A DNA stretch of 64,000 bases, taken from sequence record ON528736. The stretch is one strand, 5' to 3'. The DNA is from Shigella phage ESh26. The translations under genes were made by a program, and so were the position numbers. A model generated the notes under the pieces. It had not been told where the DNA came from. It saw only the letters and a list, made by a program, of their open reading frames with translations, and did not search any database. This document shows, piece by piece, positions 51,155 to 52,175 of the stretch. Each line of letters starts with the position of its first letter. Within the stretch, counting starts at the first letter, position 1.

Positions 51155-51230
51155 CTCACTTAATTGGTCGAGGCAGTAGGGATCGAACCTACGACCTAGG
51201 ACTTAGAAGGTCCTTGCTCTTCCTTCTGAG
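51155..51230 (-). tRNA. tRNA-Arg (anticodon UCU)
   Basis: hand-folded cloverleaf, 76 nt, T-loop TTCGATC, CCA encoded. Confidence 0.85.
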
Positions 51231-51234
51231 CTAT

Positions 51235-51310
51235 GCCCCGTAATTGGGGTGACCGATGGGGGTCGAACCCATGACTACGAGAATCACAATCTCGAGTTCT
51301 ACCAACTGAA
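51235..51310 (-). tRNA. tRNA-His (anticodon GUG), no encoded G-1
   Basis: hand-folded, 7 bp acceptor GTGGCCG/CGGTCAC, C73, CCA encoded. Confidence 0.75.
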
Positions 51311-51423
51311 CTACGGCCACATTAATACCTACTCCAACAATCAAGATGTCTTCACACGAAATTAAGAGAAGAGTGATCAGTTCAACCCTATAATCGCGTC
51401 AAGTAGATATTAATGTGACAGTT
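51311..51423 (-). ncRNA. 113 nt spacer inside tRNA cluster, possible small stable RNA
   Basis: no ORF; palindrome TGTGACAGTTGTCACA; lies between tRNA-Asn and tRNA-His. Confidence 0.2.
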
Positions 51424-51498
51424 GTCACAAATTTGGCGGACGTGATAGGATTCGAACCTATAACCAATCGCTTAACAGGCGATCGCTCTGCCATTGAG
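51424..51498 (-). tRNA. tRNA-Asn (anticodon GUU)
   Basis: hand-folded, 75 nt, anticodon loop CTGTTAA, CCA encoded. Confidence 0.8.
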
Positions 51499-51502
51499 CT
51501 AC

Positions 51503-51589
51503 ACATCCAAATTGGTGGGGAGTGATGGAGTCGAACCACCCGAGTCGCAATGACAATGGATTTACAGTCCACACCGCTACCTCTACGGG
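51503..51589 (-). tRNA. tRNA-Tyr (anticodon GUA), long variable arm
   Basis: hand-folded, 87 nt, loop CTGTAAA, class II variable arm. Confidence 0.8.
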
Positions 51590-51602
51590 ATAACTCCCCT
51601 TA

Positions 51603-51677
51603 ATTCTTAATTTGGTGGCCCTGGGTGGAATTGAACCACCATCTGGCGATTATGAGTCGCTTGCTTGAACCTTCCAG
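51603..51677 (-). tRNA. tRNA with CAU anticodon (Ile-lysidine type by position, or Met)
   Basis: hand-folded, 75 nt; follows Thr as tRNA-Ile does in T4. Confidence 0.75.
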
Positions 51678-51678
51678 C

Positions 51679-51754
51679 TACAGGGCCTTGGTGCTGATTG
51701 ACGGAATCGAACCGCCGACCTTCTCATTACAAGTGAGTTGCTCTACCTACTGAG
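51679..51754 (-). tRNA. tRNA-Thr (anticodon UGU)
   Basis: hand-folded, 76 nt, loop CTTGTAA. Confidence 0.85.
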
Positions 51755-51759
51755 CTAAA

Positions 51760-51849
51760 TCAGCAAAACTGGCGGAGGCGATAGGATTTGAACCTATGAG
51801 TCGCCGGAGCGACTGCCGGTTTTCAAGACCGGTGCATTAAACCACTCTG
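51760..51849 (-). tRNA. tRNA-Ser (anticodon UGA), long variable arm
   Basis: hand-folded, 90 nt. Confidence 0.85.
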
Positions 51850-51851
51850 CC

Positions 51852-51925
51852 ACGCCTCCAGTCTCCATACAAGGATTTGAACCTTGGACCTCCTGATCCC
51901 AAATCAGGCGCTCTACCAAACTGAG
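51852..51925 (-). tRNA. tRNA-Pro (anticodon UGG), CCA not encoded
   Basis: hand-folded, 74 nt, loop TTTGGGA. Confidence 0.8.
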
Positions 51926-51935
51926 CTACACGGAG

Positions 51936-52009
51936 TAAATTAAATTGGAGCGGATAATGAGAATCGAACTCACATCATCAGATTGGAAGTCTGAGGTAAT
52001 ACCATTATA
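51936..52009 (-). tRNA. tRNA-Gly (anticodon UCC)
   Basis: hand-folded, 74 nt, loop CTTCCAA. Confidence 0.85.
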
Positions 52010-52014
52010 CGATA

Positions 52015-52101
52015 TCCGCAAATTTGGTGCGAGAAGTGGGACTCGAACCCACAAGGAAATCATTCCGCAGCATTTTAAGTGCTGTGCCTTTACCAATTTG
52101 G
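52015..52101 (-). tRNA. tRNA-Leu (anticodon UAA), long variable arm
   Basis: hand-folded, 87 nt. Confidence 0.85.
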
Positions 52102-52102
52102 C

Positions 52103-52175
52103 CATTCTCGCGCTGGGAATAAAGGACTCGAACCTTTGCATCCTGGAATCAAAATCCAGTGCCTTACCAACTTGG
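52103..52175 (-). tRNA. tRNA-Gln (anticodon UUG), CCA not encoded
   Basis: hand-folded, 73 nt, 5' UGGGAAU. Confidence 0.85.

Follow-up and report, generated by a model that had tools for sequence, protein, structure and literature searches.

A histidine tRNA gene without encoded G-1, preceded by a covarying leader RNA, in the T2-type tRNA array of Shigella phage ESh26

The tRNA genes of two T-even phages have been studied before. The T2L array, with its Met(CAU), Tyr, Asn and Arg genes, was published in 2008, and the preferred cut site of SegB lies inside its tRNA-Asn gene (Brok-Volchanskaya et al., 2008; PMC2330249). The tRNA-Tyr of T6, which is seen on northern blots and is functional, neutralises the Septu defence; T2 is resistant to this system, and T4, which has no tRNA-Tyr, is unable to escape it (Chihara et al., 2026; PMC13096335). 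Here we analysed a 64,000-nucleotide stretch of DNA from Shigella phage ESh26 (ON528736; the whole stretch is called the window below), which carries 11 tRNA genes, all on the minus strand (51165–52185), in the order Gln-Leu-Gly-Pro-Ser-Thr-Ile(CAU)-Tyr-Asn-[leader RNA]-His-Arg. This cluster is already known and brings nothing new in itself: the same arrangement has been deposited in hundreds of records, and earlier work in T2 and T6 dealt with its Tyr and Asn genes. The subject of this report is its tRNA-His gene, which has U at position -1, and the leader RNA in front of it. As far as we could find, the combination of a U-1 tRNA-His with a flush, covarying leader, common to T4-like and T5-like phages, is undescribed, and we found no literature on a phage tRNA-His without G-1, on its charging or on the leader RNA.

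A megablast search with the 1.2-kb region returned 977 matching records, and 330 phage records covered at least 80% of it, the best match being JLBYU22 (Tequatrovirus), with 99.7% identity over 1201 bp and its tRNAs annotated. The region is 98–99.7% identical to many Tequatrovirus genomes, the same tRNAs are already annotated in most of the records listed, and the flanks are those of Tequatrovirus (trna.2-4, an ipI-like gene, 57B/A, gene 1 and gene 3). Comparison with the T2 and T6 loci showed Ile(CAU), Tyr, Asn and Arg to be 97–100% identical to those of T2, and for this reason we call the locus a T2-type array with Thr and with an insert of leader plus His. Leader and tRNA-His form a discrete module, which is missing from T2, T4 and T6 and sits between other tRNA genes in other T4-like genera. 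Taken as a whole, the locus is very probably the T-even (Tequatrovirus) tRNA operon in its T2-type form, together with the processing, supply, anti-defence and leader-helix roles that would go with it.

The tRNA-His gene (51245–51320, minus strand; ARAGORN; Rfam 62.8 bits) has a GUG anticodon, the pair G1:C72, C73 and an encoded CCA, and the base at -1 (51321) is T, hence U in the RNA, just as the preliminary description had read it. It therefore has the GUG and C73 of a bacterial-type tRNA-His, without the genome-encoded G-1. A D-arm plus anticodon pattern, applied to viral contigs and phage records, yielded 134 tRNA-His genes, and we read the base at -1 in each. It was G in all 102 genes from outside the T4-like group, six of which lie in other phage tRNA arrays; it was T in 29 of 29 copies of the ESh26 leader family (seven named T4-like genera and Morganella phage MP1), and also in the Aeromonas T4-like phages phiAS5 and Ah1 and in one further array, bringing U-1 to 32 of 32 related copies. 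Genes for U-1 tRNA-His thus occur in at least nine T4-like lineages. Among them C73, the GUG anticodon and CCA are invariant, and the acceptor stem shows compensatory changes (G7:C66 to U:A, C6:G67 to G:C, and G4.U69 to A:U or G:C), which, together with the invariant C73, argue for a working tRNA. An alternative cloverleaf register, with the first G taken as G-1, was rejected: it disrupts U8/A9 as well as the T stem, and the 3' tail becomes a 4-nt CCCA.

The 113-nt gap between Asn and His is, judged from its folding and covariation, a conserved structured RNA and not a spacer. The leader proper (51321–51414, minus strand) is 94 nt long and is closed by a helix, P1, in which 51401–51414 pairs with 51321–51334, the last pair being A51414 with U-1 itself (51321). 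Within it, 51394–51399 pairs with 51354–51359 (P2), and there are a central hairpin and a hairpin P4 (51336–51350, loop UCUUGAU). As a single sequence the leader folds better than shuffled sequence (z = -2.95), and RNAalifold gave 26 pairs, eight of them compensatory. Across 11 lineages, double-sided changes were found in 7 of the 15 pairs of P1 and 91% of cells were paired; none of 500 shuffles reached the observed score, and controls with the strands slid paired in at most 54%. A covariance model (CM) of the leader scored 111 bits against 13.6 bits on the reverse strand, and found a single copy, with no second one in the window. No credible Rfam family was found for the leader, either at gathering thresholds or with the gap alone at permissive E-values.

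Between the CCA of Asn and P1 lies a small perfect hairpin, TGTGACA-AC-TGTCACA (51414–51429, minus strand), which has A51414 in common with the leader; a similar one is present in Salmonella phage STP4-a and none in Karamvirus or Jiaodavirus, so that it was seen in Tequatrovirus and Gelderlandvirus only. The interior of P1 differs among relatives. Most genera have one of two alternative types, ∼66 nt long; Kanagawavirus has a 4-nt loop, Morganella phage MP1 ∼30 nt, and X20, PM2 and two relatives from metagenomes contain other modules. The type 1 interior contains GAUCAC-UCUUCUCUUAA (∼51364–51381, minus strand), which resembles the 3' end of 16S rRNA, GAUCACCUCCUUA; the resemblance may be due to chance. 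A loop–loop (kissing) contact between the central hairpin and P4 would be possible in interior types 1 and 2, was not visible by eye in X20, and is not claimed here.

With the gap alone as query, blastn found 355 phage records, and the leader is unannotated in nearly all of the matches listed. Its site lies between Asn and His in Tequatrovirus and between Gln and His in Karamvirus and Jiaodavirus. In Gelderlandvirus it stands between two tRNA genes with the His gene lost; in STP4-a, of this genus, the leader remains (1504–1598 of that locus) and His is reduced to its first four bases, GTGG. In the Vequintavirinae phage W70 (1037–1131 of its locus) it lies between Gly and Gln, ahead of tRNA-Gln. 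The W70 and STP4-a cases indicate that the leader can move, and persist, independently of His. Pattern scans of IMG/VR for the leader gave five loci only, and a metagenome scan with too loose a pattern gave at least 120 loci, nine of them real after nhmmer filtering.

A long closing helix with its end at -1 goes with U-1 almost throughout. A helix flush at -1 is 12–19 bp long in 17 of 20 unique U-1 leaders, compared with 3–8 bp in 80 G-1 leaders, and the ESh26 leader conforms to this pattern, its long helix having a 3' strand that ends at -1 of a U-1 tRNA-His. Within arrays, His alone regularly has such a flush helix and His alone never abuts its upstream neighbour, the leader always being at least 33 nt. 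The pattern recurs outside the T4-like phages: T also stands at -1 in T5, EPS7 and Pectobacterium phage DU_PP_V (Demerecviridae), and the T5 GenBank record gives tRNA-His as 78 nt, with that U included. In T5 (NC_005859), a tRNA-His with U at -1 and C73 adjoins RNAIII, a ∼100-nt multi-hairpin RNA annotated as stable, whose 15-bp closing helix is flush with -1, as in the ESh26 leader; with the RNAIII ends as annotated, this helix has a 3' overhang of 2 nt. EPS7 and DU_PP_V have the same layout as T5 with different sequences. The CM found no sequence homology between the leader and T5 RNAIII (nothing above 12.5 bits), and so the resemblance is one of architecture only.

These features suggest how the U-1 tRNA-His might be made. 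Its 5' end would come from an unusual cleavage that requires the leader helix flush at -1, and we infer that this helix would be a double-strand-specific processing site. Most likely, an RNase III-type cut would fall one nucleotide before G1, so that the leader would be set free as a stable small RNA and tRNA-His would carry pU-1 in place of G-1. We tentatively propose, as a possibility to which we give less than even weight, that Straboviridae and Demerecviridae infecting enterobacteria share an undescribed route comprising U-1, a flush covarying helix, a cut that is not of the RNase P type, a pU-1 tRNA-His usable by the host synthetase and a new class of stable small RNA. If this is true, the helix, which often closes a structured RNA of ∼95 nt, is where a cut, probably by RNase III, frees this new class of phage small RNA; the analysis points to a predicted, unannotated and covarying small RNA in at least 355 phage genomes.

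The rest of the array would follow a more familiar course. By analogy with T4 and T6, its genes would be co-transcribed, host RNase P and 3' nucleases would release the tRNAs, and the host CCA-adding enzyme would finish Gln and Pro. The tRNAs would help to meet the demand of an AT-rich proteome that uses much Tyr and Asn: the window has a GC content of 35%, and its 60 open reading frames (ORFs) use Tyr, Asn and His codons at 45, 57 and 18 per 1000, those for Tyr and Asn being mostly NAU. In E. coli, Tyr codons make up roughly 28 and Asn codons roughly 39 per 1000, and the figure for His is above 18. The tRNAs may also act as spares after cleavage by host defences, Septu and retron-Eco7 being systems that cut tRNA-Tyr and PARIS AriB one that cuts Thr and Asn. 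AriB cleaves the Thr(UGU) and Asn(GUU) tRNAs of E. coli at 40/41, in the motif U36AAUC/N41; at this site ESh26 Asn reads U36AAGCG and Thr U36AAUGA, both substituted, and a role for the two as spares is suggested by analogy only.

A number of points weigh against the proposed route and the roles attached to it. One U-1 gene has no flush helix, and the helices of two Aeromonas phages are short or interrupted. The suggestion of RNase III leans on the annotated coordinates of T5 RNAIII, and a 1979 paper, going by its title, reportedly dealt with a role of RNase III in T4 tRNA synthesis. A consensus scan for promoters and terminators gave nothing above the level of shuffled sequence (5 matches, where 5.8 were expected), and no promoter stands out. 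Since His codons are not enriched, supply does not account for the tRNA-His, and the anti-defence roles suggested for Asn, Thr and His would be carried over by analogy from T5 and T6. Finally, the efficiency of E. coli histidyl-tRNA synthetase (HisRS) falls more than 100-fold without G-1 (PMC3064791), so that charging of the phage tRNA-His may be poor with any 5' end.

Alternatively, the gene might not encode a working histidine tRNA at all, and be either decaying or the source of an uncharged decoy or regulator; a G-1 that is not encoded, the more than 100-fold loss of HisRS efficiency without it (PMC3064791) and a low demand for His codons (18 per 1000) would all fit. We nevertheless consider this unlikely, given that the gene is kept across at least nine T4-like lineages with a compensatory acceptor stem and with C73, GUG and CCA unchanged, that T5, likewise U-1, is on record as a source of His-accepting tRNAs, with a His gene that gives an effective suppressor according to a GenBank note, and that yeast is viable without G-1 if tRNA-His and HisRS are both overexpressed (PMC3064791). 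Instead, an unrecognised Thg1-type 3'-5' nucleotidyl transferase, from the phage or the host, might add G-1 post-transcriptionally opposite C73. The invariance of C73, the template base for such addition in archaea, is what this idea would predict, yet it leaves the flush helix unexplained. We know of no Thg1-like enzyme in E. coli or in phages of the T4 or T5 type, although no search for one was made, and we judge such an addition most improbable.

The remaining alternatives concern the leader and the purpose of the extra tRNAs. The leader moves as a cassette between tRNA genes in more than one phage family, the Vequintavirinae phage W70 being one case; it includes TTGACG, and homing endonuclease genes lie near it in some relatives. 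All of this would be expected if it acted not as an RNA but at the DNA level, for example as a recombination site, a homing-endonuclease target or a promoter/terminator cassette. However, no sigma-70-like -10 element follows TTGACG, the consensus scan placed neither a promoter nor a terminator on the minus strand of the leader, P1 retains G.U pairs, whose counterparts on the opposite strand would be mismatched A.C, the CM loses most of its score on the reverse strand, and the T5 counterpart is annotated as a stable RNA, which together make a DNA-level role very unlikely. In the classical view the extra tRNAs would serve codon and amino-acid supply only, with no role against host defence, and the leader would be an inert spacer. 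The low GC content and the abundance of Tyr and Asn codons, with NAU dominant, agree with this view, but His use lies below the host value, the GUN anticodons decode the same codons as host tRNAs do, and the leader covaries and is kept across phage families. As T6 tRNA-Tyr also has a demonstrated anti-Septu role (PMC13096335), we regard supply as the sole function as unlikely.

Genes in the array were called with ARAGORN and scored with the Rfam tRNA model RF00005 (cut-off 29 bits), and encoded ends were read directly from the sequence. The interpretation given in the preliminary description was supported and every specific claim held, with two small corrections. Its cluster is real, but the span it gave (51155–52175) is displaced by 10 nt; the eleven genes, their anticodons and their order on the minus strand are those that ARAGORN reports, including Tyr(GUA), Asn(GUU) and His(GUG), which the program accepted with the anticodons obtained by hand-folding and placed between Ile(CAU) and Arg. 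Spacers, in array order, are 0, 5, 10, 1, 5, 1, 13, 4, 113 and 4 nt; the description had them at 1–10 nt apart from one of 113, which was nearly right, the 113-nt gap standing and the Ile–Tyr spacer being 13 nt. It was also correct that T4 has eight tRNAs and lacks Tyr, Asn and His, as comparison with the T4 locus bore out, and that, among the 11 genes checked, encoded CCA is missing from Gln and Pro only.

The array begins with tRNA-Gln(UUG) (52112–52185; Rfam 67.4 bits), in which a single C follows the discriminator G, and continues with tRNA-Leu(UAA) (52025–52111; 86/87 identical to T4), tRNA-Gly(UCC) (51946–52019; 74/74 identical to T4), tRNA-Pro(UGG) (51861–51935; 75/75 identical to T4), the class II tRNA-Ser(UGA) (51770–51859; 90/90 identical to T2) and tRNA-Thr(UGU) (51689–51764; 73/76 identical to T4 and absent from T2). 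The CAU tRNA follows (51613–51687), then the class II tRNA-Tyr(GUA) (51513–51599), tRNA-Asn(GUU) (51434–51508; Rfam 74.1 bits) and, beyond the leader and His, tRNA-Arg(UCU) of the T2 type (51165–51240), directly after which an ORF begins. Ten of the 11 tRNAs score 60–74 bits with RF00005. The exception, tRNA-Tyr, is listed under the tRNA-Sec model alone (34.4 bits, below that model's cut-off of 47), because clan competition hides its score with the general tRNA model; its identity is settled by its near-identity (85/87) to the experimentally studied T6 tRNA-Tyr. The CAU tRNA had been called Ile-type in the preliminary description, and its top-ranked E. coli matches are indeed genes annotated as tRNA-Ile (81.6% identity, full length). 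It carries C4:G69 and C5:G68, which are TilS determinants, and by its sequence it belongs to the Ile2 type, the lysidine-dependent readers of AUA, with lysidine modification predicted; its lineage is not that of T4 tRNA-Ile. In the JLBYU22 record (OK272484.1, 69417–69493) the Asn gene appears as one of two tRNA-His(gtg) genes, where ARAGORN gives Asn(gtt) for the same sequence.

Ahead of tRNA-Gln lies a second leader with a flush helix (52186–52259, minus strand), formed by ATTATTAAC (52251–52259) and GTTAATAAT (52186–52194), with 9 bp ending at -1 and 56 nt enclosed. T4, T2 and T6 share this flush helix without any change, and the ESh26 version was seen in the 99.7%-identical relative JLBYU22. 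The tRNA-Gln itself is 66/74 identical to each of T4, T2 and T6. Against T4 (4458–4531 of the T4 locus) the whole anticodon arm is replaced and the gene is identical elsewhere, the arm reading CTGGA-TTTTGAT-TCCAG in ESh26 and TAGCA-CTTTGAC-TGCTA in T4.

Among the described arrays, that of T2/T2L (AP018813; PMC2330249) is the closest, sharing with ESh26 the order Gln-Leu-Gly-Pro-Ser...CAU-Tyr-Asn-Arg, the strand and the genome neighbourhood. The CAU (75/75) and Asn (75/75) genes of the two phages are identical and Tyr (86/87) and Arg (74/76) nearly so, and neither phage has segB there. They differ in that T2 carries an ORF at the place of the ESh26 Thr, and in that its Asn gene lies 4 nt from Arg, where ESh26 has the 113-nt leader gap plus tRNA-His. 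The T2L tRNA-Asn holds the 27-bp preferred site of the T4 homing endonuclease SegB, and since the ESh26 Asn is identical to that of T2, loss of the Ile-to-Arg segment is predicted in a cross with T4. The T6 tRNA-Tyr is 85/87 identical to that of ESh26 (Chihara et al., 2026; PMC13096335), but in T6 the gene adjoins segB and escape requires amplification, whereas the ESh26 array has no segB.

T4 (NC_000866) has the order Gln-Leu-Gly-Pro-Ser-Thr-Ile-segB-Arg-rnaD-rnaC. It shares with ESh26 the flanks (trna.2-4, ipI, 57B/A, 1 and 3), the flush helix ahead of Gln and a Gln-to-Thr part that is 89–100% identical. In contrast, its Ile and Arg are different sequences (47/75 and 48/76 identical), and it lacks Tyr, Asn and His and carries segB, rnaC and rnaD, while the ESh26 array is without segB. 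A run of the leader CM on the T4 locus found no similarity of the leader to rnaC or rnaD (species 1 and species 2). T4 Ser (...CCG TAA, with GTAA at the place of CCA) and T4 Ile (...GTCA TAT) lack the CCA that is encoded in ESh26 Ser and in its CAU tRNA, so that the host CCA-adding enzyme would be needed for two tRNAs in ESh26, compared with four in T4.

G-1 is regarded as a near-universal identity mark of tRNA-His, and each known exception is accompanied by an altered synthetase. Like the phage gene, the tRNA-His genes of some alpha-proteobacteria, of some protists and of the mitochondria of Caenorhabditis elegans lack an encoded G-1, but in the alpha-proteobacterial case this goes with A73 and a co-evolved HisRS, and in the protist case with a G-1-independent HisRS. 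The phage U-1 tRNAs, by contrast, retain C73 and must rely on the standard, G-1-dependent HisRS of their enterobacterial hosts. The T4-like and T5-like phages, two unrelated coliphage groups, both depend on this enzyme, both have U-1 and both place a flush leader helix in front of it; they differ in that a stable-RNA annotation exists for T5 RNAIII and none, in the records examined, for the T4-like leader, which belongs to a different phage family.

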